Assembly (NCBI GenBank): GCA_973895155.1
Contig: OZ316895.1
Location: 6,994,184-7,058,183, forward strand
DNA length: 64,000 nucleotides
Direction: 5' to 3'
Source of the DNA: Marsupella aquatica
Taxonomy: Eukaryota; Plantae; Marchantiophyta
The notes beneath the pieces are model-generated. The model was not told the origin of the DNA and did not search any database. It saw only the letters and a list, made by a program, of their open reading frames with translations. Position numbers and translations under genes: made by a program. Below, in pieces: positions 11,601 through 34,370 of this stretch. The stretch's first letter is position 1, and each line of letters opens with the position of its first letter.

Positions 11601-12218
11601 TCAAGCCAAATCCATATCTCTTGGTGTTTCTCGTAACACATGCAAGGGCAACCCGGCCTCCTGCCGTCTGCCCAACTCCTGCCTCCCGGGGACAAGTGCT
11701 ACGTTCTCCACCTCACTACTCTGGCTTGAACTTCTCCTAATCGGTGCGCTACTCACAAAAGCTACTCCAAAGCATCCAAGTACTATGCTGAGTTTTCCCC
11801 TGATGTGCCGAGGTGTGAATGAGAATTTCTGATTCTCCAGAAACAGCAGCCTAGCCAACTCTACATGGGGCACTACACGTTTGAGACATTCAAAGTAGAT
11901 TCCCTCCGTTCGTAACTCCATCCCGGCCTCAATGTCCCAGCTCTTCCCCGGGGGGATGGTAATCTCCACCTTCATGAATTCTGTAACCCCGGTGGCTTGG
12001 AAAATATTCCGACAATCCTCTATCACCTTGGCGGAGGTCTTGGGATAAATTCGACGAAAAATCCTCCTACCCACCGGCGTGGAACCTGCTGCCAATCCCG
12101 TGCTCATCGTAGCTTCTCTCTCTTCTCTCTCCCTTGAAATCAAAGTCTCCACGTAGTCACGGTAAGCAGCCTTGTATCTCCGAATGCGTGCCACACTGAA
12201 CTCCGGTTGATCTAGCAT
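11601..12218 (-). CDS. Hypothetical 205-aa ORF inside the E3 LTR
   Basis: ATG-initiated and protein-like in composition over the first ~130 aa; no family recognised. Confidence 0.35.
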   Translation of the reverse strand: MLDQPEFSVARIRRYKAAYRDYVETLISREREEREATMSTGLAAGSTPVGRRIFRRIYPKTSAKVIEDCRNIFQATGVTEFMKVEITIPPGKSWDIEAGMELRTEGIYFECLKRVVPHVELARLLFLENQKFSFTPRHIRGKLSIVLGCFGVAFVSSAPIRRSSSQSSEVENVALVPGRQELGRRQEAGLPLHVLRETPRDMDLA

Positions 12219-12549
12219 TCATGCATCCCGAAATCAAATCCTCAATCACCAAATCCCGTCACCCGTAGCAATGTCAATTCCCTGGCCCGAAACAGCCCCC
12301 GCATCCCGATCAATCGATTACTCTCAATTCCCCCAGAAGCCACTCCGTGCTGCTGCCGCTAATGCCCGGAAGAATCAGGCCACCAAGCCCCACCAATCTA
12401 CCATGAGAGAGAGCTTCAAAAATAATTAGAAGGTGAGAGCTTTCGGCAAGGTGTTGGGAGAGAACTTCGAGTTTTGCTTTCGGCAAGGAGAGGGTCGTGC
12501 AAAAGAGGGAGAAAAGAAGGGAAGAAAAAAAACCAAAAAAATCCCCCCT

Positions 12550-13290
12550 GACACCTCCTTTCGCCTTGCGCCCCGGGCCCTCCTTTAATGGCCCTCCCCG
12601 GTGCCCTCTTTCGCCTGGCTTGCGGGAGCCCTAAATGCCCTGGGCACGCAGCCCTATGGGCTCGCCCCGGCCACCTGCCATCTCACTTTTCTCACGGGAG
12701 TCCCGGCTGCGCTCTCGCCCCGATGCCCCCCTGCGCCACTCGCGGGAGCACTTAGTGCTCGGCTACTCGCGGTTCAAACGGGGGATTTAATTCCCCCCCG
12801 ACAGCCCTCTTTCGCCTCACGGCCACCCCCCGTAGCGCCCTCTTTCGCCTGGCTCGCGGGAGCCCTAAATGCCCTGGGCACGTAGCCCTATGGGCTCACG
12901 GGAGGGTTTTAATACCCCCCCTTTACTCCTCGGCTGCGGCCCGGCTGCCCTTGCCCTGCTCGCGGGAGCCCTTACCTGGGGATTCCACGTGGCGGCCCTA
13001 GGGCTGCCCCTTATGGGCCCTTAAGTGCTCGCCCACTGCTAGGCCACTTAAGGGGTATTTAACCCCCCTCCGCGACCTTCCTGCACCGGCCTCCCTACTT
13101 GGTACTCGCGGTGCCCCTTAAGGGGGAATTTTAATTTCTCCCCCACCCTCGGCGCCTCGCTTCCTTCAGCTCGCGGGGCTCCCCTCAAACGGGGGATTTA
13201 ATTCCCCCCTTTCTTCTCCTGAACGCGGCCCTATGCAGGGCTCGCGACAGCCTCCTCCCTGTCCAGCCCGGCTCCGGCTGCCCATAAAAA
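12550..13290. repeat. GC-rich internally repetitive block in the E3 LTR
   Basis: ctctttcgcctggc(t/c)gcgggagccctaaatgccctgggcacg at ~12606 and ~12840; caaacgggggatttaattccccc at ~12775 and ~13186; many ctcgcgg motifs. Confidence 0.7.
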
Positions 13291-13544
13291 AAACTTCCCC
13301 CTAATCACACTGCCGGGGTCACCTCTACTCAAAAACTTCCTTGCTCCCGGTCCTGTTTTATTTCTTCTTCCCACCAACCTTGCTATTGAGTTCTCTAAAA
13401 ATGGCCCTAAAATAATGGGGAGTCCCCCAAAGGCAGGGCCCTCCTCCCAACATAATTGCAGAACAATTAGGGGATAAAAATAAATACAGTTCTTCGGTCA
13501 CAGGTGATGAAAAAATGGTTATTTACAATGGTTATTTACACTGC

Positions 13545-16500
13545 TGTGATGCCTAGACAGGAATCACTCGGCCAGTTAAGTGGGTAAAGCAGGAAGGCAC
13601 CCTAGGAACACCTTAGTATAGGGACAAAACAAGGAAAATATAAACCATTAGGGGCAACCATGGAACCCGGGCCGAGGCCGGAGGTAAGGACGCTGAGGGT
13701 GAAAACTCGATTAGGGTTAGGGCTCGTTAAGCGTCGGCGGCTAGGAAGGATCAACGGGAAGAAGGACCGGCAGAGGAGAGGGGTAAGGAGCGCTTGCAGG
13801 AGATGGTGGCTCATTTGCGAGCACGAACTAGGCAGACGACTACGGGAGGCCAACTACTGTCAGCTGCTTAGGCAAGCACTCGGGGAGAGAGTAGATACCG
13901 ACAATCGACCTAAGGAGGGTATGAGCAACGTCAATCAAGCGGCACATTTCTGGGGATGCCTGTTCGAACGGGCAACTGAGTACATCAAGACTTACGAGGA
14001 CGAGGAATCAGAAAGGGCAGCTCGAGAACGGCAGGAGCTCGCTCGATTGTGGGAGCTGCAGAAGACAGCTTTCTTAGGAGGCGAACTCATCAAGGACGAG
14101 TTCCTGTGGACGCCTACTTCCAATCAACTCGACGATCTTCTGTTTTGCAAAGATAGCGTCGTCGGCATCCGAGAGGCCATCAAGAACTGCAATGACATAC
14201 ACTGGGAATTAAAGGGTAGCACGGAAAGGTGGACCCAGGCAACGGTGCTAGGAGAAACCTCCACAGCAGCAGAGATGAAGAGGAAGGGAGCCGTCAACGA
14301 TGAAGCCACCCCGGAAAAAAGAACGAGGTCGGCGGCACCAAAGAAGCCAGCCGAGCAGCAGAGCAGGAGGCAGGGAGAAGCCGAAGAGGAGGAGGTCGAT
14401 CCCATCAAGGTCATTCCAACCAGGGATGACACCTGGAAGGGCTGGGCGGCAACCCTACCGGTGGAGGTGCAACTACATTTTGCACGGGAGGAGGATGCAT
14501 GCTTCACGGCCATGCAGACCAAGAAGTACCAAGGCTTCATGGCCGGATCCGGCTTAGAGGCCTTTGTAAGATTACCATGGCTGAAGCCGGAGGTACCGGA
14601 GTCAGACCTATTAGAATTCGTGGGGTCATGGGAACCCGAGACCAATTGCACGAGGATATATGGGAAGGATTTCTATCTTACTCCCAAGGTAATTGCCGAA
14701 GTGTTTGGCTTGCCGATAGGCAATAAGACCAAAGTTGATACCAGGAAGACCTTGCCTGACAAGGAGTTCCGGTCGTTCCCCGGGCCATCAACAAAGAATG
14801 GCTTCTTCCGGAACACCTGCACCAACCCGCACATAGGAGAGATGATCGACTTCTTGCGGGTGACCATGCATTGTAACTTGCCGAGGGCAGAGATCGGCAA
14901 GGCACAGGTCTATCTGGCAGAAAGGCCAGACCCAAGCCGGGACTACAACGGGTACCTCCTCAACCAATTGAAGAAGATCTTAAAGGAGGAGCAACAGGTA
15001 ATCGGCATGGGGAGCGTGTCGCGGCTTGGCTATCACATGCCGCTGTTGTGCCGGTATGCCAGAGGTCAGACTTTTGCCCCGGTACTTCCCCTGCAGGTAA
15101 GGGCACCCGAGGAAGCTCCAACACCGAGGCCGTTGGCTGAGAAGCCTCAACCACCTGTTAGCCCTACGATCGAGCAGGTGTTTAGGCCCAGGAAGGAGGA
15201 CTTGCCGATGCAGCAACCAGGCATGCAGAGTCTGTTGAAACTACTGGAGAACGAAAAGAAATCGGCATCGGCAACAACAACGGCAACGGCAACAATGCAG
15301 GACACTACTACAGAGGTAGGCCTACACCGGCTCACAAGAGAAAACCCCTTTGCTGGAGACAAGGAGAGAATCAGGCCGGAATCCAAGCCCGGTGTTCGAA
15401 TGTATGTGGGAATCTCAAGCTCCGAATCTGAGGCAGAATTGCCTGAAGCTCCTACCGACGAAGAGGAGAGGGAGAAGCCGGACGGCCAAGAAGTAGAGGA
15501 GGCAGTGGAGGACTGCAGCCATGATAATTCCGGCTATGGGTCGGACCATCACGTCCCAGGAGTAAGGACCTGTGGCCGGTTTGTCCCCACACTTCCAAGG
15601 GTAGTGCGAGGGGACCCCAACCAGCAGAGTAGCCCTGAGTCTCCCCCACCAGATGTTGCTCCCCCGAGCTTCGACGGCATAAAACAGACGGTGCAGGAAT
15701 TTCAGGAGCGAATCAAGCAGGAAGAGGAGGCAGCCCTGGCTAGGGAAAAGGATTTACCAGGAGGAGATTGGCCGGAGGACATCAGGCGGCTAGCCAAAAA
15801 AGGAAGCAAACCTCTAGCCACGATTGAAGAGATCCGCAAGACGGCTTGGGAGCAGAGGCCGCGATGGGCGATGCCGATTACTTCTACTTACTCCACCTAC
15901 GCTAAGAATAGAGCCATGGAGTATGGTGAGATGTGTGGGGAACTTGCGCTCGGCATCTTTGGAGAGGAGTTGGAGGTAGGACCCTTTTTCCATAGGGAGC
16001 AGTTGGAGAAGCACCAATTAGAAGAAGCGGTGGCTTTAGAGAGAAGCAAGAAGGACGAGGTCATTCGGCGGCTTAGGAGGATGGAAGCCGAGATTGAAGA
16101 TCTAAGGGCGGCCAAGAAAGCCCAAGATGAACTGCGGATTAAACGACATGAGCTGAACATCATGCAGGGGCAGTTGGACACCGCGCAGGCTGATAATCAG
16201 AATATCAAGGATAAACTGACTCAGACGTAGGGAGAGTTGGCCGACACGATCAAAGAGAGGGAGAAGTGGAAGCAAGAGCTGAAGAATACAGAGGAGGCCC
16301 ACATAACAGCCAACAGCCGGGCCATGGCGGAGACCCAAAGAAAGGAATGGGCGTTGAAGGGGGAGCTCGAGAAAATCCGCGGAGCCCTTGAGCAGAAGGA
16401 GGCCGAGTTAGGGAAATCCTATCAAGGGATTATGGCGCTACAGCAGGAGCTTGCGTCCCTGACGGCCAGCTTCAAGGCCGACCTAAGGGAGAAGGACGAG

Positions 16501-18207
16501 ATGCTCGAACAGACTTACGCCAAGATGAACCAGATGGAGTCTGTCATCATTGCAGAGCTCGACAAGGAGCTAAGAGCAACCCAGGAGGAGAGGACTACCT
16601 TGAAACAAGAACGGGAGGAAGCCCAGAAGGAACTAGAGGAGGCACGCAAGGACCTGGATGAGACCCAGGAGGAGTTGGAGGAAATCACGAGGAAGATGGA
16701 GAACCTCCAGCGGCGGGCCGACAACCAAACGGAGCGGCTGAAGAAACAAGCCGCAGTATTTAAGTGCTTGTCTTCATCAGGCCCAACTCCAATTGGGGCA
16801 ACCAAGTTACCAGGAGTGGTACTGGCCGAAGAAAAAGCCGCGCCACCTGCACCAGTGCCGGAAGTAAGTGGGAAGGGGAAGGGACCAGCTGCCGAACCAG
16901 AAAAGAAGAAGAAACGGAAACCTTCAGGGTCAAAGAGTAATCCGACTCCACAAGCCGTGATGACCAAGGAGGTAGAACTAGCACCATCCTCCGGCATGAA
17001 TACGGCAATAGATCCCGCTATCATCACAGGTGGGGGTGGTGCGGCCCAAGCCGAACTACTCAGTAATGAGGCCGGTATCCCAGATCCGCCTCTTGAGCAG
17101 GCCGGGAAGACCCAAGCCGTGGCTGAGGCCGTAACCGGTTCCCGAGCCGATGCCGACGCCGATGGTGGACCCAATCAGGGCGATGGAGAGTTGACTCAGT
17201 CAAGGGCAGGTAATCTGTCAGAGAATGAACCTACGGCAGTGGCTGAGGAGGAAGCGTTGGGGGCGTCCATTGAGGATCCACCACCGGTGTCGTGACGGTG
17301 CAAGGGCGCCGTTCCTTTTAGGGAGGGCGGACGTGGAGGGAGGAGGCGTGAGTGGGCAGGGCGGGCGCTGATCTCCAAGTTTAGGATTAGGATCAGGACC
17401 AGGAGCGGCCCTGACACTTAGCTTAGTGGGATTGCGGTTCCACTGGTAGGAGCAACACTTGTGCTCCTGCCTTGCTGTACATAGGTAGATTCGGGCAAGT
17501 AGATTACTGTTAAGTAGATTAGGCTTACGATGCAAAGAATGGCGGATCCACTACCAGGATAAGTACCTGGGCAGCGGGGAGCTCAGGGCCTCTTCTTTAG
17601 CAAGTTTTTAGTTTGCACCAGCCGGGCTGGGATCAAGTAGTACGAGAAGCTCTCGGTTAGTCATACAGTGACCCTTGTGTATATTCATGTTTCCTCATGC
17701 CTAAGAGCTGAATAGAGTTGGCCTCACGGCTTAGTTCGCGAAAGTTGTGTATGAGATGTACTGTTTGTATGGCAAGTGCATGGTATGACTTAGTCAGAAT
17801 GAGTCATTTTGCTATTTGTGTGTCGCATTAACTTGTGTGAAGAGTGCCCACATCAACCAAAAGGAAGGAAAGTAAGCAGGGGAGTGAGAGTTGGATGTGT
17901 CGAGCTGAGAGAGGTCTTAGCGGCTTAACCAAGCCTATTGGGGATCATTCCGGCGGCGGAATCCAAACATACCTAACAAGACGGAGGGGAAGACAGGGGA
18001 AGGCCTAGATTAGGCCGGCTACGTATCTCATGACCCGATGAAGGATCTGTCCAGTATATGTGTGTAAAATGTTAATAGTAGTAGTAGAAGGTTAGCAGCG
18101 TCCCATGCCGCTAAGCCGCGGAAACGGCCTCGCCAAGCGCGAAACCTGCGGGAATCGGCTTGAGCTGGGGGGTTTCTTGGGTTTAGGGAGCCATGGCACG
18201 CACCACA
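13545..18207 (+). mobile_element. A2: complete 4663-bp TG...CA solo-LTR-like coding unit
   Basis: TGTGATGCC...GCACCACA with a perfect 5-bp TSD ACTGC (13540-13544, 18208-18212); the flanks rejoin into the E3 LTR. Confidence 0.93.
13660..17295 (+). pseudogene. Unit-A ORF, ~1211 codons with one premature stop: putative plant-TE accessory domain plus long coiled coil
   Basis: ORFs 13660-16230 and 16237-17295 are in frame across a TAG that is CAA (Gln) in A3. GLEAFVRLPW...EFVGSW...YGKDFYLTPKVIAEVFGLP recalls PMD/ATHILA-ORF1-like folds. E/K/L/A-rich coiled coil, KKKKRK NLS-like run. Confidence 0.8.
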
Positions 18208-21200
18208 ACTGCGCGACACTCCGCAACCAAGTTATTCATGATTTTATGTGACGGGGACCCCGTCACAGCAAGGGGCATAACTCATTAAATGTCCTTATTT
18301 GTGACCAAAAAGGTTTTGGGTTTAATGAAGTGGGGTTCATGGAGGTTGGACCATGGAGGGATGGTCAAGATATTCTTGGCCATTACTAAATCCATCTATA
18401 AAAGGTCAAGATGCACAAAGGTAGATTTGTACCGGTCCTTTTTCATACATTAGAGCTAGGTCACATTCTTGCACCGGGAATATTGCATTTTAGGACCGGA
18501 TATAATGTTGGGCAACCTTAATCCTGATTACGGCGTGCAATAAAATGTTACTACCGACCATGTATGTGCAAATATGACCATTCATTGCCTAAGTTGGCCA
18601 TGCAGTAACACTTTGTAGCTTTGTCCCACTTTGGGTGACACTCAACGGCTCACTCAAACGGTAAGGCTGAGTGGCTTCCCCTAATTTGGTTTCAGGCACT
18701 AAACTTCACTTTGGGAGTCTCTTTGGAGTTTTCGCCATTGTCATTGAACTTAGAACGTGAGGGGTGGAGTGTTCGGGGTTTTACGTAGGGTTTTCCTTTC
18801 AGTGTTGCCCACTTTTTGCGACCATTGCGGAGTGAACTTCCCACGCGTTATGTGCTTGTTTATGCTCTCGAGGAGCAGTGTTCAGGCAGTTGCGGTGATC
18901 TAACCTTGCGCTTGCAGTCTACTCATAGACCTGCATTCCTGCTCGATCTCCTTTAGGGACATTTAGTTTTTGGCTGGTAGGGCGAAGAAGGTTGTGGCTA
19001 CTGCAACGTTCGTGAGGAGCTTGTCGGAGTTTGAGGAGTCGGAGGTTGGGGTTTCTTCAAGGTTTTGGGTGACAATCTCGGTCACAGTTGTGGTATAGAC
19101 CCTTTTGCTCGTTATGGGCTCATTGGGAGGTCCTTCAGTTGTCAAGCTGCCGTTGAGCTGGTGAAGTTGCATGCGGGTTGCATCTGTTCTGTGGACACAG
19201 TCAGTGTGGGAATCCATATTTTCATAGTGCTTGTTCTTGCAAACTGGGAGCCGAGAGTTTGGAGTCGGGAGCTAAGAAGGGTATTGTTAGGCTTCAATTA
19301 CTCTGTGGTTTTCTCCAGCTCCATGGTACAGTTTCAATGTTAATGCTTTGTCCTTGTGCTGGTCTAGGTAGCGCGAGCTTCTACCTATTGCGCCCTCTTG
19401 CTGTAAGCGTATTGAGCTGCCAACTGAGTGATTCATACCTGTAGCTGCTTACGCGTGATCAAGAGATTGAACAAATGCCTAGTGCTGTCCAGCAGGAGAA
19501 AACTCTTTTTGGTCATGATCGGGCGTTGGAATATAACTAAGTGTGGCAGAGCAACACGGGGAGCTGTAGAGTTGCAGACAAGACGCAACTACAGAGGAGG
19601 CATTGGGAAGGACACAACGGTGCGGTGAAGGTACAAGGACCGTGGACCCTAACTTGTTTGCTGCCTTGGGAGGATCCGGAGAGCCCGAGGCGACATGCTT
19701 CATTGAGCCTGAGCTAGCTGAATCCAATCCAGGAGTTGTTGCGCTAAGGTGAGACTTTGAGTTTAGGGTTGCTTCAGTGTCCGAGTAGGTTTTCTCTTTG
19801 CGTCGGCAGCTAGAAGGTAAGCTTGGGGGCTTTACAAAGGGTTAGTGTTGCGGACTTTCCCTCCTGGACGTTGTGTGTCTTCATTTGCAACTTGTTTGTG
19901 GACCTGTGATCCTAAGATTGTCAAAATTGTTGTGGCCGCACTGACAACTTGATGACGCGTTTTGTGGATGCACCGTTAGTAATCGCGAGTACAGCTCTCC
20001 AACAATTGCACTTACCATTTTTGACCACCTTGCATGATGTCCATCCGTGGGCTGGACCCCAAGAAGTAGATTTCGGTAGATTTTGGTAGATTTTGTCTCT
20101 GCCCCCGGTCCTCATTTTGTGCAATGTCCGCCTGGCACTTGGTTCTTGATCCCTACATTATCGTCTGCCGCTCGGCTGCTTGCGGAAGGGATCAAACAGA
20201 TTGGAGGTGCTTGGTCTTTTCATTTTGAGTGTCAGAGTTTAGGAGGACAGCTTGCACCATCGCCGACAAGAATGACCTGCTTGCAGAACAAGAGGGACGA
20301 GCGTGAGCTGCTTGTAGAATAGGAGATTGACCGCGAGCACGAGCTGCTTGAAAAGAGGAGACTGAGGGCAACCTGCTTCTTTGTTGCTACTCTGGTTGCG
20401 CTGCTACATTGGTTGTTGATCTTCACCCACCCACTTGCCTACTCAATTGACAGAGTACAGCTTTGTCTCTGCGTCTGTTACTGCTGTCTTTGTCCCTCCC
20501 CTTGAAATTGTGGGCCTTAAAAGGTCAGTAAGTTGGCTTATGTAGTTTTTATGTCCCTCCGCTATGTCAATGCGTGTTTCATTGCATCAGGGCATCAGTC
20601 GTTGTTTGCCTATAACCGGACTGTTCATTCTCTGTCCACTCATTTGATGTAATTCTTCCCATTGCCGCCCAATGCTATGGCGCCCATGCTACAATTTGTG
20701 GTTTTTGTCTAAGCACAAATCCTCTCTATGCCTGGTCTCTGTGTCCCGTCATTTGGATTGATTGTGTAGACGTTTCCTCTTCTCCCAGTCCTTGTCATCC
20801 ACCAGCCAAAGCACATTGGATTGTTTTCAAAGGAGGGCTGTGTAGTTTGGAGGGTTTGATCTATGCAGCGGATTTGAGCAGATTGGCGGTTGTTAGTTTC
20901 TTCTTGTAAAACCTGTCTGTCTTTTCTGCTTTTGGCCATGCTCCTTCACTTCTTGCTGCAAGCTCAATGTGCTTCAGCTATGGCAATATTCACTTACCCT
21001 ATCCCAATGGCACTACCGTGAGCTATAGGACAGCCAACAGAAGCAGATTGTATCGATTGCATGTAAGTCAGGGTATTTTATGTATTGCGGAACAACTGTC
21101 CAAGTTTGCTGCAATGGCCGGTCTTGCGCAGCTGAATGAGCCAATTTCATTTTCCCTGTGCACTTCTATTTCTCAGAGAATTCCCTGGTCATGCTCATTT

Positions 21201-21762
21201 CCCCCAGAGTTAGAAAACAAAGAAGAAGAGCTGACTAATTGTAATTCCAATCCATATCCTGATCGGTCAAGGATTGTTCACTACATTGGCCTTGTCATTG
21301 GCCGAGGTCACCAAATTTTGCTTGGTTTCATTCCTGTGGAGCACTGCTGTGATGGATTTGTCATAGCATTCTGCAAACTCTCACGGTTTGCTTATGGCCA
21401 TTATTTGCAATTTGCTGCTACTAATATGTCTTCTTCTGAGCAGCATACACCAGAAGTAGCAATAGTGGAGGTTTAACTGCACATCAACACATCTAGTGAA
21501 CTACCTCTCTGCTGCTCACTGGAGGGTGAGACTTTCACTCTTTCTGGATATTGTAGTTTGTAAGCAAGTTGATTAGGAGTGTTTCATGCTATGTTTACAC
21601 TGTGACCCCTAGCTGGAACCAATGGAATGACACAGTGAGTGGGAACTGATAATTTAAGGTTGGTTGCTGTTGGTGAGGCAAGTACAGCTCCTACTCACCT
21701 TGCTGATCGAAGGTGCTTATCAGAGGACGTGAACACACGACATCTCCACAAAAGCAACACTT

Positions 21763-22212
21763 ATGGTGAGGACCCGCAACGCTGAACATGTGCGGCTTGC
21801 ACGCAAGGCAGAGATGTTGCGCCTTGAGTATGTCAGACTTGGGATCCTTCCAGCCCAGTTTGCATGGTACTTTGAGTACCCAGTTGTTGCCAGGAACAAC
21901 TACAGCCGGCCTGTACCTGCTTCTCCACCCTTCCCAACATCCTTGGTATTTCTGTCTCTCATACATGACCCGCCACAAATTAGGGCCCAAGGGTGTGTGC
22001 ACAGTTGCCAATATGACTGTCCTGCCTGTAGGGCTTCTGGCCTAGAGTTGGATGACCGTTCTCTTGGATGTCGGTTTTTTCACAGAGCACAATGTATCAT
22101 CTGGAACCACTCGTCATCCTGTAGTGTGCCTGGCGATGTCACTTGTCCTGCCCTCCCAGACCCCACCACCGGTCACTTTGGTGTCTACACATGTTTGGAT
22201 CACACGCTCTAG
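21763..22212 (+). CDS. CACTA cargo 1: small protein with a Cys/His-rich PHD/RING-like C-terminus
   Basis: ATG ORF of 149 aa; CVHSC..DCPAC...GCRFFHRAQC...YTCLDH pattern. Confidence 0.5.
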   Translation: MVRTRNAEHVRLARKAEMLRLEYVRLGILPAQFAWYFEYPVVARNNYSRPVPASPPFPTSLVFLSLIHDPPQIRAQGCVHSCQYDCPACRASGLELDDRSLGCRFFHRAQCIIWNHSSSCSVPGDVTCPALPDPTTGHFGVYTCLDHTL

Positions 22213-22881
22213 AGGACCACTTGTGTCACCGCATGCACAAACCAGAGACCATTGACCTATAACTTAACACTTTGACTTGAACAGAGAGGATATTTACTTA
22301 AGATTTTGAATTATGACCAATTTTGGGTCCAGGGTTTAGGGTCAACAGTACATAACTTATCCTATTATGGCTGCACTAAGTACAATATCCTAATTTAAGA
22401 GGCTAGCAAGCTCACTTAAAAGTCTCCTTTCAAAGACTGGAATTAATGGGCCATGTGATAACCTGGAAAAAGTGATTTCTGCCTAACTTATTTGTCTCAT
22501 TCACTATCATAGCCTATTTAGGATGTATAAATTACAACCCTGATCACAGTGCTTGATACCAATCCTGTTCAAAAAATGCCTGTTTTACATGTCACGACTG
22601 TTATATGTGATTCAAATGCATTAAATCTTGTTGCAGATCTCCTTTGGTGAATCATAGCCACAAAATTGAGGTGTAGGTGGAGCTATTGTACGAGGGGACC
22701 AGTTTTTAGTGTGGGCTCAACAAACCAAAAAGTATGTCTACTCTGCACATGTGTGTGAACATTTCATTGCAGTAGCAATTGCCACTCTAGTCTATATGCT
22801 ACACTGTACTTTTTGTACACTGCACTAAATTGTATTGTCTGTGCACTCTGCTAAATTATACTATCTGTCTCATGCGTAGGC

Positions 22882-23562
22882 ATGGCACGCCCTAAAATCC
22901 GAGCCAAGAAGCGGGGGATAGAGGTGAGCAACACAGGTGTAGTTGGGCCAGATGGTAGTAACTTCTCCGCAAGTCAGATTTTCCAGAAGGCAGCTCATTG
23001 TTGTGCCATTTGTGACGATGGTGGTGGCGTAGCCATATGTGAGGGCCCTTGCATGAGGCATTTCCACCTCAACCCGGAGTCTGACCTTGCTGCAGAAAAC
23101 AACTGTCTAGGGGTGGGCCTCCCGTCAGCACACCAGGGAGGCTGGATGTGCACTGATTGTTTGGAGAAGCAGGCTAAGTGTGCACAGTGTGGGAAGTTGG
23201 GGTCTTATGAGGGCTCTGTTGATGCTCCACCACTTGTTAGGAAATGCCCTGACAGATATTGTGTGAGGTTCTTTTGTTTTTCATGTTTGCCCGATCTTGC
23301 CACAGCTTGCCCACTTCATAAGTGCAAGGCATGTGGTCAGCATGATGAAGATTTATGGGTGGACATAGTCCACTGTGTTAGGTGTCCCACCATGTGGCAC
23401 TTTCATTGTTTGAAGGAGCGTCAAGCAGAAGGCTATGCTTGTGACAGACACATCTATGATCACTCTGCACATGGTGTTGATCAATGGATCTTTTATTGTC
23501 ATCGCCATGCCATAGATCCTACTTTGCACACTCCCATGAGAGATCACATTTCTTGGCTTTGA
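22882..23562 (+). CDS. CACTA cargo 2: stand-alone EDM2/NSD-type multi-PHD finger protein
   Basis: CAICDDGG..ICEGPCMRHFH...CTDC...KCAQCGKLGS...CPLHKCKAC...CVRCPTMWHFHCL...FYCHRHAIDPTLHTPMRDHI parallels the EDM2 PHD region as recalled (CAICDNGG..CEGSCLRSFH...CPLHKC..C...CRRCP..YH..CL...YC..HEID..L.TP.RDH). Basic N-terminus. Confidence 0.82.
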   Translation: MARPKIRAKKRGIEVSNTGVVGPDGSNFSASQIFQKAAHCCAICDDGGGVAICEGPCMRHFHLNPESDLAAENNCLGVGLPSAHQGGWMCTDCLEKQAKCAQCGKLGSYEGSVDAPPLVRKCPDRYCVRFFCFSCLPDLATACPLHKCKACGQHDEDLWVDIVHCVRCPTMWHFHCLKERQAEGYACDRHIYDHSAHGVDQWIFYCHRHAIDPTLHTPMRDHISWL

Positions 23563-24160
23563 ACCTGAATAATGTACATGCATAGTGCACCTGATGTGGA
23601 TACCTTGGAGATTGCAGACATTCCAATTTTGAGAAGAAGGACCTCTGTAGGAGAGGATGCTTAGGCAACAAGTACCCTAAGTTCATTACTTGTTCCTGGG
23701 TACATGCCTTCAAAAACTCCCCTTAAGCCTTCTAGGAACTTTTTTAACTCTGCAATCATTTTGATCACGACTTACATGACACTGCTTAAATTAAATCAGG
23801 ACTTCTCATTATGAGCATATAAGTTACAAGGCTATTTAATTTGCGAGAATTCCCTTAAAGTGTACCAACATTTTGTATTCTCATTGAATGTCTGCCCATT
23901 TACAACATCTGTATGTGGCATCACAAAACAATTGCACTTGTCACCTTCAATATTGTGAAGGCACATATTCAAACTATGAGGTGCATGCTTGCAGGTGTCT
24001 AGTACGTTTGTCCCAATATTTCTCCCGTTTGGAATCGGAGCAGAGACTCACCAGACGATTGGACTGGACCAAGTTATAAACGCAGCATTTTAAGGGCCCT
24101 CCGATTATCAGGTGAACGCATTATCTTCTGGTCTGCAGTGATTAGGTGGCCCGTGTGTAC

Positions 24161-25009
24161 ATGGCCTCTAGGAAACATACAAAGGTTGACCACCCGCCTC
24201 TGTTGGCTGGAATCAAAGCCATTTTGATTCCTGGCCACTATGGGTTCACCCAAGTGAGTTGGCCAATCGTACAAAAACGATTCTCAGAGTTCCATGGGAT
24301 TGAAGTCAAGGACATCACTCCACAAACTACACATGTTGTTGCGGGGACATGGCTGGATGTGATGAACAAGTGGTCATGGTCCTTCATTGATTCTGCCATT
24401 ACCAACCAAGGTCTAAAAGTAGTTGAAGTCTCTTGGCTGACCGATTCTGTTAAACATAGGTGTGTACAGAGTACTGAGCAATATGAGTTGTGGGAGAGTG
24501 AGGAGGCCACTGCAGAGGCTTTGGCTGAAAAGGAAGCCTATGAAGCAGCGGCAGAGAAACCCAACTTTGCTTCTGTCCAATATGGACCTGTTGTCAACAT
24601 AGGACACCATCCTATGCGTGCAGATGCTATATTGAATGAGCATGGCAAGGAGAGAAATACCATTATGAAGGGGTTCAGTGTGGTATTTGCAGAAGAAGGA
24701 ATTGGGGAGACTAAGTGCAGACTGTACAAGTCCATAGTTGTTGAGCTAGGTGGGACAGTGGAGGAGAGTCTAACAGAAACCTCCACTCATGTTGTAGGTC
24801 TGTCATACATGAAAATATGCAGAAAATTCTTTAAGACAATAGTGCGTGATTTTGTCATGAACAACAATCTTTGGGTGCTTTCCCCTGATTGGCTTCTGGA
24901 ATCAGCAGCTAGAGGGAAGCGACAGCATGCTTGGGACTTTGATATTTTTGAGGCCTGGCCCTCCAAGATTCAGCGGAGATGTATGCTTAGCAAAGGTGGG
25001 AGAGAGTGA
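24161..25009 (+). CDS. CACTA cargo 3: tandem BRCT domain protein
   Basis: Two repeats with BRCT hallmarks: ...TTHVVA...VVEVSWLTDSV and ...LGGTVEESLTETSTHVV...VLSPDWLLESA. ATG at 24161. Confidence 0.8.
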   Translation: MASRKHTKVDHPPLLAGIKAILIPGHYGFTQVSWPIVQKRFSEFHGIEVKDITPQTTHVVAGTWLDVMNKWSWSFIDSAITNQGLKVVEVSWLTDSVKHRCVQSTEQYELWESEEATAEALAEKEAYEAAAEKPNFASVQYGPVVNIGHHPMRADAILNEHGKERNTIMKGFSVVFAEEGIGETKCRLYKSIVVELGGTVEESLTETSTHVVGLSYMKICRKFFKTIVRDFVMNNNLWVLSPDWLLESAARGKRQHAWDFDIFEAWPSKIQRRCMLSKGGRE

Positions 25010-25185
25010 GGAGTAGGAGTCCCTCATATTTTTGTATAAATCACAATTTTGTAATAAATGTGATCCTTGAACTAACTCATCTTGTCATGGTTGGTCGCAG
25101 TTGAAGTGATTGTTGTTTCCTGCTGCGTCGGGTGTGACTGTGAATCTACTTGCTGGGCTCTGTTTGGTTGAAGACTTTGGTGGGT

Positions 25186-25719
25186 ATGCTGCCTCTTCCA
25201 GACCGTCAGGCCCTATGTAGGGTCCTCCTACGGGTTGCATCGTGCATGGCTACTGCTTGGGCTTACTTGTGTGGATTGGTAACCAGACAGAGTGTAGCTC
25301 CATCCGAGATAATGTCTGCAGACCTTGGATGTGTTGTGAATGCTGTGGTGAATGAGGATGCACAGTCGGAAGAGGACATTTACTTTTCAGCAGATGAGTT
25401 AGACAAGCACGATGCTGTAGGTGGTTCCTTGTTGCCTGATTTGGCAGATGATATAGTTCTTACACATGTCTGGCCGAGGGTTCTTGTGGTGTCTGGCGCA
25501 CAAGATATCTGCAAATATAGACTAATTAGTACCCAGTGGAGGGACTTGGTAGCAACATGTGCACCATGGAGGGCACTGCTGCCACTGCTTGTAGGCACGG
25601 ATCGAAGACCACCATGGCATGAGCAGGGTTTAGACCTTGATGACTTAATGTACATGCCTGAGTACCTCAGGGCTGAGTGCCATCGACAACAGGATTGGTA
25701 TCCGTATTTGATGTGGTAG
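25186..25719 (+). CDS. CACTA cargo 4: small F-box-like protein
   Basis: SLLPDLADDIVLTHVWPRV...YRLISTQWRDLV fits the F-box consensus; no recognisable C-terminal substrate domain. Start codon uncertain. Confidence 0.6.
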   Translation: MLPLPDRQALCRVLLRVASCMATAWAYLCGLVTRQSVAPSEIMSADLGCVVNAVVNEDAQSEEDIYFSADELDKHDAVGGSLLPDLADDIVLTHVWPRVLVVSGAQDICKYRLISTQWRDLVATCAPWRALLPLLVGTDRRPPWHEQGLDLDDLMYMPEYLRAECHRQQDWYPYLMW

Positions 25720-26045
25720 TAAGATGAGAACATCTCACACCGGTCTCACACCTGGCACCTGTGTCTATGACTATACATGATTGGACTCTGATATGGTCAT
25801 GGATGTACGTGCAGAGGCAGTACATGTGAGGACAGCGGAGGAGTTGACACCCTCAAACATTTAGGAATTTTGTCTCATTCACTTGAGAATAGGTACATGA
25901 CTCAGGCACCTATATTTTTTGTTTTTTTGTTTTTTTGGAACGTTACGTATTTTGGCAAGTACAGTCGGGGGTGAAATCCTTAACAGGAAGTGTATTTTTC
26001 ACTTGCATAATAAAATGACAGGGTGCTGAGTGCGTGTGTATAGTG

Positions 26046-29000
26046 ATGGCTCCAAGGTTGCCTCTTCACAACCCATTTAGGATTAGGCATCATGATTCTA
26101 AATTGTGGATGCGTGAACAAGCTCGGGCCGCCCAAGGTAGGAGTAGGAGGATGAGATGCCCATGCACACAGTGCCAAGGATTCAAGTCGTTGAGTTTGAA
26201 CACTGTGCACCTTCACCTGCTGCGGCATGAAAGGCACCCTCGGTGGAGGGTTTGGAATGTACCAGCAGAAGAAGACTCCTCTGATGAAGAGTGGAGAGCT
26301 GACTTTGTGGATTCTAATACAGCTAGGTGTAGAGACTACGTAGAGCAGGACATAGACTGTGCAGAGGATGGTCCTGGGGTCCAACATGAGAACGTGGATG
26401 ACCAAGATGGAGAGGCAGAGGCAGTCACTGAGGACGGTGGGATGGATGTCCCAAGAATGGTTCAAGAGATTTTTGAAGACCTTGATGCTTTTTACGACAC
26501 AGTGGAATCAGAAGAGGACAATGAACCGCAGCCACACATTGGCGACGGCCAAGCTGAACCTGACTTTGACATTGGGGAAGGTGCAGCAAAGAGGGAGTGG
26601 GTGTTTGGGGGCCCAAAACACATCAAAGAAGCTTGCATTCCTATCTACGAGGGGTCGAACTGCTCCAAGCTGGGTTTTGTCGTGTTGTTGTTGAACATCT
26701 GTGGCAATCACAATGTTCCCAATATATTTGTGACAGAGTTGTTGACCTTCCTGCGCCGAAATGTGTTACCAGATGGTAATTCAATTCCAAAAAATATGTA
26801 CGAGGCTAGGAAATTGATGTCTAACCTTGGGCTGAACTATGTGTCTATTGACGCATGCCCTGATGGGTGTGTTCTCTTTCGCAAAGAGCATGCAGATAAA
26901 TTGGCATGCCCTCATTGTGGTAAGCACAGGTACAAGAATGTAGGGAAATGTACACATCCTGCCAAGGTTCTTCGTCATTTTCCTCTCATTCCTAGACTAC
27001 AACGTCTATTTAGATGCCCTGCCATTTCCAAGCTGATGACATGGACTCCTGATAACAAGAGCAGTGATGGCCTGCAGCGTCACATTGGAGATTCCAACCA
27101 TTGGAAATTTGTTGATGAGAGGTGGCCACAGTTTGCTGCAGAGAAGCGGAACTTTCGATTTGGTCTATCACTGGATGGAGTAAACCCATTTGGAGACAAA
27201 AACAACCGTTATTCATGTTGGCCGGTTACGCTGCTAAATTACAACCTTCCCCCATGGATGACTACAAAGAGGTTTTTTGTCATGATGGTGCTGTTAATCC
27301 CTGGACCAGCTTCTATGACCGAGCAATTCATAGATATCATGTTGGCTCCAACAGTGGAAGAGTGGAAGACTTTGTGGATAGAAGGGGTGTTAACCCATGA
27401 TGTTCTGAAGGGGCTTCTTCAACCCAGCCCCTTTAGACTGCATGCAATTTGTTTGCTGGATATAGCAGATTACCCAGGCCATGGCATCATATCTGGACGA
27501 GTGACAAAGGGCTATGTGGGGTGCACACCATGTGGGAAAAATGTGACAAGTGAGTGGTCGCATGCCCTGCACAGTATGAAATTTCAGGGGCATAGAAGGT
27601 ATCTGCCTGTTGATCATCCTTACAGGCACACACGGTCTCAAATTGCACACTTCAACAACAAAACAGAGCTTCGTGGCCCACCACAGAGGGTCACCAGAGA
27701 GCAAGTCCTGAGGTGGGCAGCCAGGAAGGCTGATTGGGATAAGAGAAGTGCCACTGATCGAGAACTTGAGGATCCAGTGGTGAAACACGGTGTGAAAAGA
27801 CAGACCTTGATGGACTTGGAGTTGGAGTACTGGAGGGTAATGTACTTAGCCTCCAGCCCCTGTATGATTGCAATTTTAGATTGGAGCAATGGTGGATTGA
27901 TGTTGGTTACAATCCTCCTCTGTGGTTAATTAGTGTTTCTGTTGTTGAAGTCTTTGCTTTGTGGAGTGCAGGAATTCGAGCCCAGCAAACACAATGTGGA
28001 CGTCATGCACATTGAGAAAAATATTTGTGAGAGCTTGCTGAAGTTCTTGTCGGGTGAGAAAGATACAGGAGCAGTTCGAGCTGATATGCAACAGAAGGGG
28101 ATTCGCCCTCACCTTTGGTTGAAGCCCCATGCAAGCAATCCCAATGTACTTCTCAAGTTCCAAGCTCCCTATGTGTGCACACAGGATGAATGGAAGACAT
28201 TCTTGTATAGATTGAGCTGTCTGAAAGTGCCCTCTGGCTATGCTGGTGCCTTCAAGAAGCATATTACAAAGAATAAACTTGGCAGTATGAAAACACATGA
28301 CTACCATGTGTTGATGCAACACATTCTGCCCCTATGCCTCAGAGGTCTCATGCAGAAACCAGTCCGTAATGTCATTCTTCGACTGTGCAATGTATTTCGC
28401 CGTATATGTGTGAAAGTGTGGGATCCCCAAGGATTGGAGCAGTTGAAGCAGGATGCTGCTTATGTCCTCTGTGACTTGGAGATATACTTCCCCCCTGCTT
28501 TCTTTGATGTTATGACTCATCTCCTAATCCATGTGGTAGAAGAGCTAGGGCAGTATGGGCCAGTCAGTACCAGATGGATGTACCCTATGGAGCGATACAT
28601 GAAGTTGTTGAAAGGTCATGTGAGAACATACTACAGGCCAGAGGCTTCCATGGCATTGGGGTACATTAAGGATGAGACGTTGGGATTCCTAACAGAGTAC
28701 ATGGCTGGGTCTGGTGAAGCTATGACAAGAGTTTGGAAATCTGGTGAAGATGATGGAGTGAGTGGCGAGGTTGTTGAAGGTGTGGCCGGGACGTGCTATT
28801 CAGCTGCCTGTTGCGATTCGAGACAAGGCTCATTCATATGTGCTGGCAAACACAGAGCCTATGCAACCATGGTGGAGGTGAGTGATTGAATTGACTTGCC
28901 TTTGTTGTGATGCTTCTTGTCTGTTCCAAGGGTGATCTTAGGTTGTCATGTGTTGTTTAGACCTAACTATGCCTGTACCTCATATTGCAGGGAATATGAT

Positions 29001-29750
29001 ATGCAAAAAGCTGCACACTCTGGGCAGCAGGATCCCTTCCCACAGTTCGAGCAGTGGATTCGGGTGACAATTCGAGAGCATAGTAGACATCACCCAGATA
29101 TGGAGAAGGATTTGTATCTTCTATCTGTGCCACCACGATTGTCTATTCTGACCTACAAGCGGATGAGAGCTTATGGAAATCATTATCGAGTGAGGGATGA
29201 GCAGGGTGACCATTGTGTATCATATGATTGTGGTTTGATTTCTGTGTTTGAGCAGAGAACCTCTGAAGAACAGAGGGGGTGGATGAAGATGGGTTACGTG
29301 GGGGAGTTGACCGACATTTGGGTGTTGAATTATGGTAACACAAGTGTCCCAGTGATATTGATGAAGGGATCATGGGTGAAATCAGAGTGGCAGAGACCAA
29401 GGGCCACCATGAAGCGTGATCATGATGGGTTCTTGTTGGCCAATTTTAGGTCCAGAGTACCAGAATGGTCTGAGCCTTTTGTTTTCCCTAGCCAAGTTGA
29501 ACAGGCTTTCTTTGCAGATGTGGAGGAGTCACATGGCTGGAGGGTGGTATGCCATAGCCAAGCACGGAATAGGCGGATGGATGGAAGTAAAGTAGAGTTC
29601 AGTTTGGATGACCATGCTGCATTCGAGCATCCTAGTCATGAGACTGTACTTCCAACTCGGGCAGGGACTGACTACATCCCCTTAACATTGAGAGAGACAT
29701 ATGATGAACCTGGGCAAATGGAATATGATGAGGTTGATGATTTGCAATAG
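26046..29750 (+). pseudogene. CACTA TnpD/Tnp2 transposase (Transpos_assoc, Transposase_21, DUF4218, DUF4216), two introns, one frameshift
   Basis: RCPCTQC..HLLRH; DACPDGC..CPHCG; LRHFPLIPRLQRLF; DGVNPF..SCWPV..YNLPP; DVMHIEKN; KTHDYH; RWMYPMERYM; EPFVFPSQV. GT-AG introns 27837-27971 and 28878-28990. Frameshift at ~28788: the KAHSYVLAN..PW motif lies in the shifted frame. Confidence 0.9.
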
Positions 29751-29926
29751 GCAACAGCTGGCGATTGGCAAGTATGAGGTTGAGGATGACTACCTGCACA
29801 GAGTCACAGAACGGGAATTGCTGCCTGGAATGATGTTTAGGACAGTTGGATATGCATGAAATTGATTGATACTTTGAATTTAGTGTGCTGATTCCCCTGT
29901 TTGGTTGTGGGTGCTGTGCAGAAGCT

Positions 29927-32900
29927 ATGGGGGAAGAGGGTGATGACATGGAGACAGACATGGGGCTTGGAGAGGGGTGAAGAGGAAAGATTGGATATGG
30001 ATGGAGACCCAGATGCAGGGGGCTCACAGAAAAATGCACCTGTGCAGGATGCACAGGGCCCTCATCAAGTCCCAGGTAGGTGGGCAGCTAGAGAGAAATC
30101 ACATAATCCATACCCTAGAAGGAGCCAGAGTTATTGGCAAGGGACGCCTGATAATTATGATGATGACTATGATGGAGCAGAAGATGGATGGGATGAATAT
30201 GAACACCCAGAGCGTGGTAGAGACGGGTACAGAGGGCAATGGAAAGGTGAGGAGGATGATTGGACAAGTAAGTGCCTTGTGCTAGTGATTTTGTGATGGT
30301 AGTAGAGATTTAGCTCAATATGGACTTATCTGATGTGTAGCTAGGGCAAAGAGTTTATCTTACAGGTCCATGAGTGTGGCATGTACCTGTTGGTATGCAG
30401 ACTCTGATTGGGACAATCACGAAAACAACAAAGGCCATCCACGTTCAGATAGGCGGCAATCATTCACAGGCGGGAGAAACGGCCCTAATTCATCAAGACA
30501 AAGCAATAGGACAGGTGGTCCAGAACCATCTATGCGCCAAGGGAGAGGTAACTTGGTCATTGCAGAATTGCTCTGAATTCCAATGTATATTTGGCAGCAG
30601 GATTTATGATTCATACTTACCTAATGTAAGTGACTGTAAATGGATCCTGTAAATGTGCAGGGACTCCAGGGAGGTTTGGACAATGCAATCCAGGCCGTGG
30701 GGGGAGATCAGGCCGTGGAGGGACCCCAGGCCGTGGGGGGACACCAGGCCGTGGAGGGACACCTAGTAGCGCTTCAGGGAGTACCAAGGCAGGAGACAGT
30801 AACAAATTTGGTAAAGTAGAAGTGAATTCCGAAGGTTGGATAACTCCCACATGTGATGGTAAGAACCGTTGGCATTCTGACCTAAGAGGAGAAGTATTGC
30901 GTTGGTTAGATTTGAGCATTACAGAGTTTAGGAGTCAGAACAAAGCTGATTGGGCTGCTATCTGCAAGGACATTCTTGAACGGTGGGACTATGTTGGTAA
31001 TGATGGTAAGGGCCCAGTTGAAGATTGCATATCAGATTATGCAATGAGGATTTTGAAACAAGAGAGGCATAGGTTGAAAAGGATGTGGATAGACAATGGT
31101 TCTAACAGGAGAATGCCACCACCCCCATCATTGGAACTGGATCAATGGACACGGTTAATCAAAGGGTTCATGTCGGAGGCTGGACAGAGCAAGAGTGAAC
31201 TGATGTCAAATGCTCGAGGCAAAGTGAAACACCTTTCACAGGCTAGGAGAGGAAGTTATGCTCCAGTGAAAGAACAATTGGTAAGGCAGTGACATGCCTG
31301 ATAGTAAGCCTCAAACTTAATCTTGCTACCATTATTACATTTTCATTGACAATCAACACTTGGTTTCATTCATATGTATGTTGATGTGGACTGCAGAAGA
31401 AATTGACAGGTGAAGAACCATCAGCACAAGAAGTGAGAGAGGAGTTCATGAAACAAAGGAGTGAGGTGACAAGTGTGACTTCCAAACAGGTGATTATGTT
31501 GTAATTCTGTATGTTCTGTGACTATTTGGCCTTGAGCATCAGAAAGAAATGTAATAGGAAGTAAGCAACCAGTTCTTGGGGACAGTTATCTGAGATATGT
31601 AAGCTGTGTTATGACAGGGAACTGTTACAACTCTCACAGAGATGTGTGAACAGTTGAAGTCATTAGAGTGTGGACTCCCTCGAGTGGAAAGTAAATTGGC
31701 TGATCGTTTGGATATTGTGGAGGCATCTGTAGCGAACCTTCTTGCATCAGTGGAATCTAATTTCAAGCTTGTGATTGAAAAATTGGGTGGTTCCCAACCA
31801 AACAATGAGGGCAACATTGTACAAAGTGTGCCCTTGTTAACAAAAAAGGGAATTGGCAAATCTGACACAGGTATGGAAATGACACCGGCCCATTGTTCAT
31901 TGTGTCCTATGTTCAAATGTTAGAAGTAAGTTTTCATGAATTGAGTGAATGGTTTGAATGCAGGAAGAGTGGAGGCAGAGAAGGACCCTGTAATCAGTAA
32001 GCAGAAGGGCAAGAAGGTTGCTGAGACAGGTAACCTGCTATGATCCAGTAGATTACATTTGAAAAGTGCATGGAGTTTTGTGAAGCTTAAGCCGGTTGCA
32101 GGTAATCTTTTCTGTAAGAACTGGTTGGATGAACTGGGATCTGAAGTGACATCATGATTGATGTATCAGGTGATTCAAAGAGCAATAATGAAGAAGATGT
32201 GCCCAGTGCCTCAGTGACCATAGCCAAGGAGGTATCAGGTAAGCTGATGCTTTAAATTCCTCTATATGAATGTTGAGCAACAATTCAGTGGTTAATAGAT
32301 TCAACCTGAATATTGTGGTGTGTTTATTGATCAACAGAAGCAGACATGGAGCATATGGCAATGGCAAAGAAGGGGAAGAAGGCTGTTCATAATGGTAAGG
32401 AGATAGTGACAACTTTGTGGTTGGTGACATGTACATTTAGCACATGTGATGAGTGATTGACTTATGTTGGACATGACACTGAATTGTAGTTGATGCAGAG
32501 TTGACAGACTCTCAACCAAGTGGGAGCAGGGTGAAGCGACGTCAAAACTTGGGAGCAACATTGGATGCAAGTAAGATTGTAGATGCTTTAATTGAAGCAA
32601 GTACAATGTTGGCAGATACTGAGATGATGTCGCAGGGAAATCCTGCTACACAATCAGAAGTGTCAAATATGGATGCAGATTCTTTGAAGAAGAGTGTAGC
32701 CAATTCTCGATCACCAGCACAAAACACTCGTGCCAAAGTCATTACTCGCAACCAAGGTATGAATAATGTCATGTATAAGCCACCCAGGAAAGCCAAGAAA
32801 AACAGCCAGGGTAAGGTGGAGGTGATAGCCACAGCAGAGCCAGTCCATAATCTTCTATCATGGGAGGATGACTCGCAGGTATGTGTGGGTACAGGCATTT

Positions 32901-33091
32901 TGCAACCGGATCATGCAAAATTCCATGGCAAAGTGGTCCCGGATGACCATGTAGTAGTGTTGTTGACTACAGTGATTGTATCTGCTTGTAATTTGCCATT
33001 TCCGAATAGAGACGATGATCCACCTCAGGAAATAATTGCAGATGTAGTAGGATCTCTTGTGCTTTGGCCATCAGAGTGTGTTAGTCTGTAG
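29927..33091 (+). CDS. CACTA TnpA-like second gene, multi-exon (boundaries approximate)
   Basis: Exon 30661-31280 has PGRGG repeats and LKQERHRLKRMW..PPP..DQWTRLI..KSELMSNARGKV. Last exon has FHGKVVPDDHVVV..LPFP..VVGSLVLWP (Tnp1/En/Spm-type C-terminus). Several short GT-AG-bounded exons lie between. Confidence 0.7.
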
Positions 33092-33594
33092 TGACTGAAT
33101 GCAAGTGTAGATAGAATCATGTGAATTGTGTCACATTTTGACATTGCCTTGGAAAGATCCAAGAAATATCTGTACCAATTTTTCCATTTGGTAAAGAGGA
33201 TGAAGGAGCCGTTGTGTGTGACATTGATATTTCTGAATTCTGTATGTATGAAACAAGTGATTGATGTCAAACTATGGCTCTATGGTGATTGTCTATGATA
33301 CTTGAATCTGTTTTGTATCATTTCAGTATTAGTGTGTATGGTATAGAGGAATACTTTGTGACCTTCTTTGTAGTCTATGAAGTTTGAATCTGTGAATTCA
33401 TATTAGTGTACATGGTATAGAAGATGGCTTTCTGAAACTATGTATTCTAATGTTAACATGATGAATGGTGAACTTATAGAGTGAGTTCATTCCAAGTACA
33501 CAATAAAACATGAATGCAATATGTTATTTGTGCACAAGAGTGGGTTCATTCCAAGTAGTATAGTGGGGTCTTCATCACTCATATCCAGTTGACA

Positions 33595-33922
33595 TGAAAG
33601 ACTTATACATACCCCACAAAGTATATTTAAAGACTACCCTCCATAACTTTTTTAGTCATTCCCAACGACTCACCATCTCAGCCCATAAAAGACTGAAAAC
33701 GACTCACCAAAGCTACCCACACAAAGACTAAAATAGACTGAAAATCCAGTCTATTAAACGACTTATAAACCAGTTCTATAAAGGACTCAGTTGATTATAG
33801 TAACAAAACATACGACTCGCAGTCCTATAAAGGACTGGAGTCCTTCCCAGTCGTTTCCAAGTCCTATACGGTACTGAATAGTCGTTTAATGGGGTCTAAA
33901 TACCCCCCGGTTTCTACTAGTG
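33595..33922. repeat. CACTA right subterminal repeats and TIR
   Basis: Many AAAGACT/ACGACT/AGGACT motifs in both orientations, ending ggtctaaataccccccggtttctactagtg. Confidence 0.85.
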
Positions 33923-34370
33923 TTGTATGGCAAGTGCATGATATGACTCAGTCAGAAGGAGTCATTTTGCTATTTGTGTGTCGCATTAACTTGTGTGAAG
34001 AGTGCCCACATCAACTAATAGATGAAGGAAAGTAAGCAAGGGAGTGAGAGTTGGATGTGTCGAGCTGAGAGAGGTCTTAGCAGCTTAACCAAGCCTATTG
34101 GGGATCATTCCGGCGGCGGAATCCAAATATACCTAACAAGAAGGAGGGGAAGACAAGGGAAGGCCTAGATTAGGCCGGCTACGTATCTCATGACCCGATG
34201 AAGGATCTGTCCAGTATATGTGTGTAAAATGTTAATAGTAGTAGTAGAAGGAGGTTAGCAGCGTCCCATGCCACTAAGCTGCGACAACGGCCTCGCCAAG
34301 CGCGAAACCTGCGGGAATCGGCTTGTGAAGGGGGGTTTCTGGGGTTTAGGGAGCCATGGGACGCACCACA

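Follow-up and report, generated by a model that had tools for sequence, protein, structure and literature searches.

The window, which is the whole stretch of 64,000 nucleotides analysed here, contains a CACTA (En/Spm) transposon, and between its ends lies an intact gene for a short protein with three PHD fingers of the EDM2 type (Table 1). The element measures 30 kb with a nested Gypsy element and about 16 kb without it. Its classification rests on TIRs that both begin with CACTA, a 3-bp target duplication, with TTG on the outer side of each TIR, and a TnpD transposase. Two further copies of the repeat interrupted by the element occur in the window, and in these the halves are joined with a single TTG; the CACTA element is thus a true insertion. 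The TnpD domains found by Pfam (Transposase_21, E 1.6e-59; DUF4218, E 2.3e-27; DUF4216) lie on the same strand as the PHD ORF, 2.5 kb downstream. The TnpA-like gene has Transposase_24 as its sole Pfam support, a weak match with E 0.074. Downstream of the nested Gypsy, the plus-strand order is the 149-aa ORF, the PHD gene, the two-BRCT ORF, the F-box-like ORF, TnpD and the TnpA-like gene.

Table 1. Coordinates of the CACTA element, its ends and the genes carried between them, as positions in the window
Feature	Position	Strand	Remarks
CACTA (En/Spm) element	3884..33922	+	basis: TIRs, 3-bp TSD, TnpD domains
Left TSD (TTG)	3881..3883	.	
Left TIR	3884..3901	+	18 bp identical to right TIR, 81% over 47 nt
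Nested Ty3/Gypsy	4559..18267	-	gag 8347-10533, pol 4546-8250; 11-bp direct repeat at bounds
Cys/His-rich ORF, 149 aa	21763..22212	+	no Pfam match
Predicted 5' untranslated exon	22637..22731	+	prediction; followed by a 148-nt GT-AG intron to 22879, acceptor picked by eye
Stand-alone EDM2-type triple-PHD gene, 226 aa	22882..23562	+	
Basic leader, residues 1-11	22882..22914	+	predicted disordered
Clade-specific cap	22963..22986	+	aromatic 13 before Cys41, E/Q four later, predicted helix 30-33
PHD finger 1, C41-C93	23002..23160	+	C4HC3
PHD finger 2, C100-H146	23179..23319	+	His-to-Cys at 132; ~20 residues deleted, C135 to C143
PHD finger 3, C148-H209, and EDM2-family tail to 226	23323..23559	+	finger ends in His
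Two-BRCT ORF, 282 aa	24161..25009	+	one relative, 294 aa, 61% identity
177-aa ORF	25186..25719	+	matches the F-box weakly (E 0.082, under the Pfam cut-off)
TnpD transposase exons	26046..29750	+	Pfam domains
Likely TnpA-like multi-exon gene	29943..33091	+	weak Transposase_24 match at 30630-31289
Right TIR	33905..33922	-	
Right TSD (TTG)	33923..33925	.	

The repeat that received the CACTA element itself interrupts a Gypsy LTR, and the second Gypsy element is nested within CACTA. The original prediction, in which the ORF was carried by a transposon that had landed in a nest of other elements, is borne out on both counts. The nested Gypsy inserted later than CACTA; it ends at about 18267, and its right-hand border with CACTA is approximate. 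Membership of the PHD ORF in this Gypsy was considered and rejected, the region 21300-26000 having no similarity to the other Gypsy copy. The Gypsy LTR begins with a palindrome, half of which forms the 11-bp direct repeat of the nested copy (sites at 4559-4569, 18247-18267 and 45703-45722). A 4.6-kb unit with TG...CA ends is present in three copies (13545-18207, 37274-41862 and, split, 2099-34370); its ORFs of 856 and 323 aa have no clear Pfam match and run antisense within or beside Gypsy elements, and it may be a separate element or a part of the Gypsy repeats. The BRCT and F-box-like ORFs form a cargo cassette directly behind the PHD gene (24161-25719), inside the CACTA ends. Host genes begin 20 kb to the right of CACTA: a PPR-DYW gene in which a 303-bp unit is repeated in tandem seven to eight times (54327-58103) and an intronless gene for an L-type lectin receptor kinase (58819-60918).

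Judged by its sequence, the PHD ORF is a stand-alone gene. Its product contains 22 Cys and 16 His and consists, as had been predicted, of a basic leader and a Cys/His array, with the end as originally quoted plus one Leu. The ORF is intronless, and a likely 3' splice site precedes its ATG by 2 nt. An N-terminal extension through the nearest predicted exon is unlikely, because that exon lacks an ATG and contains two stops in frame. Relatives in the stand-alone clade described below begin at the same start motif, and in seven full-length members the stop comes after the last conserved motif. In the window protein, Cys or His stands at every one of the 24 positions where the three fingers hold their zinc ligands. 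Three NSD-type PHD models of Pfam match the ORF in order, each below cut-off. AlphaFold2 (60-row alignment) gave a pLDDT of 87.5, high over residues 31-226 and with residues 1-21 disordered, so that the predicted protein is a folded six-zinc module preceded by a disordered basic leader. The best fold matches of this model are chromatin-reader PHD cassettes, namely PZP domains (with low TM-score) and the NSD PHD5-C5HCH module (Z 5.8-5.9, rmsd 2.6-3.1 over 83-85 residues); they confirm the predicted finger type only. The CpG o/e ratio is 0.27 in the ORF, 0.23-0.38 in the rest of the element and 0.68-0.71 in the host genes, and the depletion in the ORF fits a presumed long residence in methylated DNA.

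ORF residues 41-225 are 29% identical to residues 225-432 of Arabidopsis EDM2 (BLASTP, E 1e-24). The match runs through the C-terminal tail, which two NSD-like proteins lack; the tail motif YC.EHEID..L.TP.RDH, given in the original prediction, is indeed common to EDM2 and absent from these two. An HMM search covered 1.84 billion representatives, and the best 150 of 477 matches were examined. The best nine were all short stand-alone or repeated-module proteins, the short ones at the top of the list being 166-245 aa long. Next among the best 150 of 477 came mostly plant EDM2-family proteins, many with an RFD domain, and proteins with both RFD and PHD occurred among the 46 plant matches scanned, including the Arabidopsis EDM2 cluster. 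The protein is of the EDM2 family, as had been proposed, and its nearest relatives outside the clade are plant EDM2-family proteins. An NSD origin was rejected. The two NSD-like proteins are without the tail, and theirs are the lowest scores with the clade profile (72-80 bits vs 83-147 for plant EDM2-family proteins). A word-index search for longer relatives returned only two distant NSD-like proteins.

The stand-alone clade comprises about 20 unnamed proteins with pairwise identities of 34-84%. The ten members that were looked up are unnamed or hypothetical (Logan, JGI, ENA), with none from an annotated genome, and the window copy is the only one shown to lie inside a transposon. In quick trees of rows selected from 157, with SH-aLRT support only, the stand-alone proteins formed one branch on a long stem (support 95, 98 and 100 with 65, 29 and 23 rows, respectively); in trees with NSD-like outgroups, long branches meet. 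In one tree, without NSD-like rows, the clade came out as sister to liverwort paralogues with a C-terminal PHD module (support 80). Topology tests did not reject a grouping with long liverwort EDM2s (p 0.43) and rejected a grouping with four flowering-plant EDM2s (AU p 0.023). The ORF is no recent capture, since the clade is old and its members are 34-84% identical. The best long relatives of the window protein are 29-34% identical to it, with no close host donor among them. Liverwort proteins lead these long relatives, which suggests that the host, a land plant, is a bryophyte. The RFD and C-terminal domains of EDM2 are absent, but the ORF need not be a truncated EDM2: six liverwort-type paralogues, five named as liverwort proteins (619-768 aa) and one of 280 aa, already have the PHD module at or close to the C-terminal end.

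Six other short EDM2-like proteins (P0027, P0033, P0054, P0030, P0046 and P0049), two of them named from grasses, likewise consist of a leader and a PHD module, and three start with M-A-R-x-K. Since these proteins fall within the flowering-plant EDM2 branch, modules that stand alone must have arisen repeatedly. Algae, liverworts and one lycophyte also have EDM2-family proteins that often begin with M-A-R (P0014, P0016, P0017, P0019, P0041, P0047, P0094 and P0107), unlike the acidic start of flowering-plant EDM2.

Six of the eleven aligned clade proteins have the full ligand set although pairwise identity falls to 34-48%; the other five lack one or more ligands at scattered places. Retention of the zinc ligands across copies, proposed as a check on the module, thus holds in six of the eleven and fails in the other five; the window copy has all its ligands. 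About 9 of 20 clade members, the metagenome locus L001 among them, are truncated or carry a frameshift, which is what decaying copies would show. The window copy itself departs from the clade consensus at the conserved sites L76 and V50.

Contigs of four public runs (three organism codes), found with 21500-26000 as query, cover 30/30 bins of 18000-34200. In all four runs contig depth over the PHD gene is at least that of most transposase bins, a depth that does not measure copy number, and no listed contig of these runs spans both the ORF and the transposase. Contig depth at 18541-20704 is below that of the rest of the element in 4/4 runs, and the family may vary in this part. None of the eight listed common indels (about four independent sites in the four runs) falls in the ORF, which makes up 61% of the compared stretch; low-depth contigs with gaps inside the ORF exist. 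Thirty ORF changes, taken from 40 of the 112 listed variant rows, include ten synonymous ones, against 21-27% expected (p 0.08-0.26). An apparent stop at codon 158 in the contigs proved to be an artefact of two adjacent changes. A metagenome scan gave 69 pattern matches that reduce to six loci, of which only L001 belongs to the clade. Its gene (754-1420 in a 1.5-kb contig) is broken by a frameshift and a stop and has a good plant start context; the short flanks carry no transposon signal, and beyond the gene nothing in the contig resembles the window.

The module differs from that of host proteins at the surface predicted to face the histone. EDM2 binds H3K9me2 through its PHD fingers, and AIPP1 bridges ASI1 and EDM2 (PMC9910501, PMC3776765, PMC7529245, PMC9292364, PMC11265718, PMC7472560). 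An acidic residue stands within five positions before Cys41 in 110/114 host proteins (12 of 126 were dropped, their first Cys not being located or lying too near the start) and in 6/6 liverwort paralogues, but in 0/17 clade members. In its place the clade has a cap with an aromatic residue at -13 (17/17) and E or Q at -9 (16/17). In AIRE PHD1, Asn295, Asp297 and Glu298 contact K4 and K9 of H3, and Asp304 and Asp312 contact R8/K9 and R2 (PMC2685098). The alignment puts A37, H39 and C40 at the former three positions and the retained D46 and E54 at the latter two, the match being inexact in position, as the acid of EDM2 sits at -3/-4 and that of AIRE at -2. Sequence and fold comparisons with known structures found no solved EDM2 module or EDM2-histone complex. 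Further changes affect fingers 2 and 3: position 132 is Cys in 11/11 clade proteins and His in 48/51 host proteins, the C135-C143 spacing is 8 in 11/11 clade proteins and 11-56, mostly 26-28, in the host, and R120, R129, W172 and H194 are newly conserved. The H3K9me2 read-out of EDM2 is not transferable to the clade, because the acidic residues before finger 1 are missing. What remains of the proposed EDM2-type reader is the family and the module; H3K9me2 reading is not to be assumed. The module is more diverged at its predicted histone-facing surface than first assumed, and with the acidic patch lost it could bind histones only weakly or not at all. NSD-type PHDs may also act as protein-protein modules.

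We consider it very probable, from comparison of these sequences, that the PHD ORF is a functional accessory gene of the CACTA element, because it stayed intact across much divergence, has a start, cap and stop of its own, and has no close host donor. The protein has no catalytic domain and must therefore bind. The reading we favour, tentatively, is that it is a maintained chromatin-binding accessory protein aiding the element's own expression in silenced, methylated chromatin. The protein would be expressed and nuclear, and its module would dock on the H3 tail via D46 and E54, without the acidic patch on the K4/K9 side and with a chromatin specificity likely different from that of EDM2. There it could serve as a tether for the element's own proteins (BRCT, F-box-like, TnpA-like) or for factors of the host, and such tethering would likely let the element be transcribed while it lies in silenced, methylated chromatin. 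The TIR-bounded position, the family identity, the complete ligand set, the age of the clade and the residency-like CpG ratio all point this way. Precedents are the promotion of COPIA4 transcripts by EDM2 (PMC3632883) and the activation by Spm TnpA of its elements while H3K9 methylation stays (bioRxiv 10.64898/2026.08.24.746577). EDM2 represses Mu1 (PMC3632883) and thus acts on transposons in both directions. Selectivity for the element itself would need a partner, because a PHD module has no sequence specificity, in contrast to VANC and TnpA. We judged this tethering function the likeliest, ahead of action as a decoy or histone mimic, then integration targeting, and last, at equal rank, a non-histone scaffold and neutral cargo.

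The leader bears on the second of these. After removal of Met, the window leader has A1, R2, K4, A7 and K9 spaced as in the tail of histone H3, A1 and A7 being the corresponding H3 residues; the consensus of the clade leaders is the same except for A or S at position 7. R2, K4 and K9 are residues of the H3 tail (PMC2685098). Host readers or writers of H3K4/K9 might bind or methylate such a leader, or the bare module might compete with EDM2-like proteins, and silencing would be weakened broadly; we regard this as unlikely, if the best of the alternatives. An M-[A/T]-R start occurs in 13/17 clade leaders, with K4 in ten of these, A/S7 in ten and K9 in six. The leaders have 26/39 matches to H3 against 9.1 when each is shuffled, and a joint column shuffle gives p 0.008 for a pattern that was spotted post hoc in related rows. 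The full pattern is present in 5/17 clade and 0/125 host proteins, the linker behind it is not conserved in the clade, and a protein without a catalytic domain would suit the role. However, Pro at position 3 and Lys at position 6 each occur in 7/13 of the M-[A/T]-R leaders, M-A-R starts are also found in 10/125 host proteins and 3/6 liverwort paralogues, and an NLS or DNA-binding arm is a simpler account of a basic leader. At 29-34% identity and with 20 residues deleted, surfaces for host partners may be lost, which would weaken competition with EDM2. A wider conjecture, which we rate lower still, credits the DNA transposons of bryophytes with a common, ancient accessory protein made of a retuned EDM2 reader and an N-terminal H3 mimic; the module would anchor on chromatin, the leader would absorb host H3K4/K9 writers and readers, and the protein may pass between unrelated superfamilies. 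If true, it would be the first case of a plant transposon encoding an anti-silencer that mimics a histone.

It is improbable that the module joins a TnpD/TnpA complex and steers insertions to one chromatin type. Reader-guided integration is known for chromoviruses, and the window copy does lie in a repeat within a Gypsy LTR. The PHD gene is separate from the transposase gene, however, and this is a single insertion in a repeat-rich window with host genes 20 kb away. The earlier hint of steering into heterochromatin keeps its observation, a copy in a nest, but not its inference, as one insertion shows no targeting and the nested Gypsy arrived after CACTA. A scaffold role away from histones seems equally doubtful as the absence of any role. 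The zinc module might bind a protein of the host or of the element, acting for instance as a substrate adaptor with the BRCT and F-box-like proteins in excision-site repair or removal of a silencing factor. The same-strand BRCT and F-box-like ORFs adjoin the gene, finger 1 has lost its acidic patch and the four new conserved residues have appeared; but D46 and E54 are retained, the F-box match lies below cut-off, and neighbours need not interact. CACTA elements often capture genes (PMC13317346), and the ORF might be neutral captured cargo of the Pack-CACTA kind, amplified with the element and of no function for it. The many broken relatives and the departures of the window copy from consensus would suit such cargo, and the synonymous count given above is compatible with it. 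Against it stand the lack of a close host donor, the clade's own conserved start, cap and stop, the ligands kept across 34-48% identity, and an intronless ORF free of the listed common indels.

PHD fingers are known from further transposon-borne proteins. Their presence in transposons is documented in a figure legend (PMC9977147), and literature listings record them in RAG-like elements. The transposon-side sources were PMC13317346, PMC13547354, PMC10398659, PMC9977147 and bioRxiv 10.64898/2026.08.24.746577; in a search whose scope excluded Repbase and most subscription journals, no EDM2-type module was found in print in a transposon. In their main texts, neither the 2026 Spm preprint nor the Arabidopsis TE-product atlas nor the gene-capture review uses the word PHD, and the supplements of the preprint (78 Spm elements) could hold a PHD accessory gene. 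Pack-CACTA elements likewise carry host-derived coding sequence between CACTA ends (PMC13317346), whereas the ORF described here is whole, intronless and long-conserved, has no close host donor, and resides in an element with transposase genes of its own. With NSD1/2/3 the protein shares the Pfam matches below cut-off and a weak PDB match to NSD2 (E 0.018); it has neither the SET nor the PWWP domain of the NSD methyltransferases.

Closer are the liverwort paralogues (Calypogeia P0014 and P0036, Riccia P0016, Marchantia P0017, P0021 and P0057), which end 3-47 residues after the module. Among long relatives, three of these six score highest with the clade profile, and P0014 shares the cap motif of the clade. 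Unlike the clade, they have long N-terminal regions, the acidic residues and the His ligand. Arabidopsis EDM2 (P0157, EDM2_ARATH) shares with the ORF the three-finger module and tail, and the last finger ends in His in both (EDM2: PMC3776765). EDM2 also has the RFD, acidic regions, an ELP domain that resembles methyltransferases, and an end rich in proline; the ORF consists of leader and module only, and differs further in the missing acidic run before finger 1, the His-to-Cys swap, the 20-residue deletion, the new leader and cap, and its carriage by a transposon. The clade module is a natural variant for dissecting histone-mark reading by the EDM2 module, and a soluble protein of 226 aa, easy to express, makes it possible to ask directly whether transposons use the chromatin readers of their hosts to counter silencing. 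VANC of VANDAL elements and TnpA of Spm are likewise accessory proteins of plant DNA transposons that act on silencing; they bind DNA sequence-specifically and reduce its methylation, whereas the ORF would encode a host-derived PHD module. To our knowledge, plant transposon anti-silencers are DNA-binding proteins, either transposase-derived or of unknown origin. Here, a transposon appears to keep a miniature of a heterochromatin-handling host factor, with its predicted histone-facing surface rebuilt.
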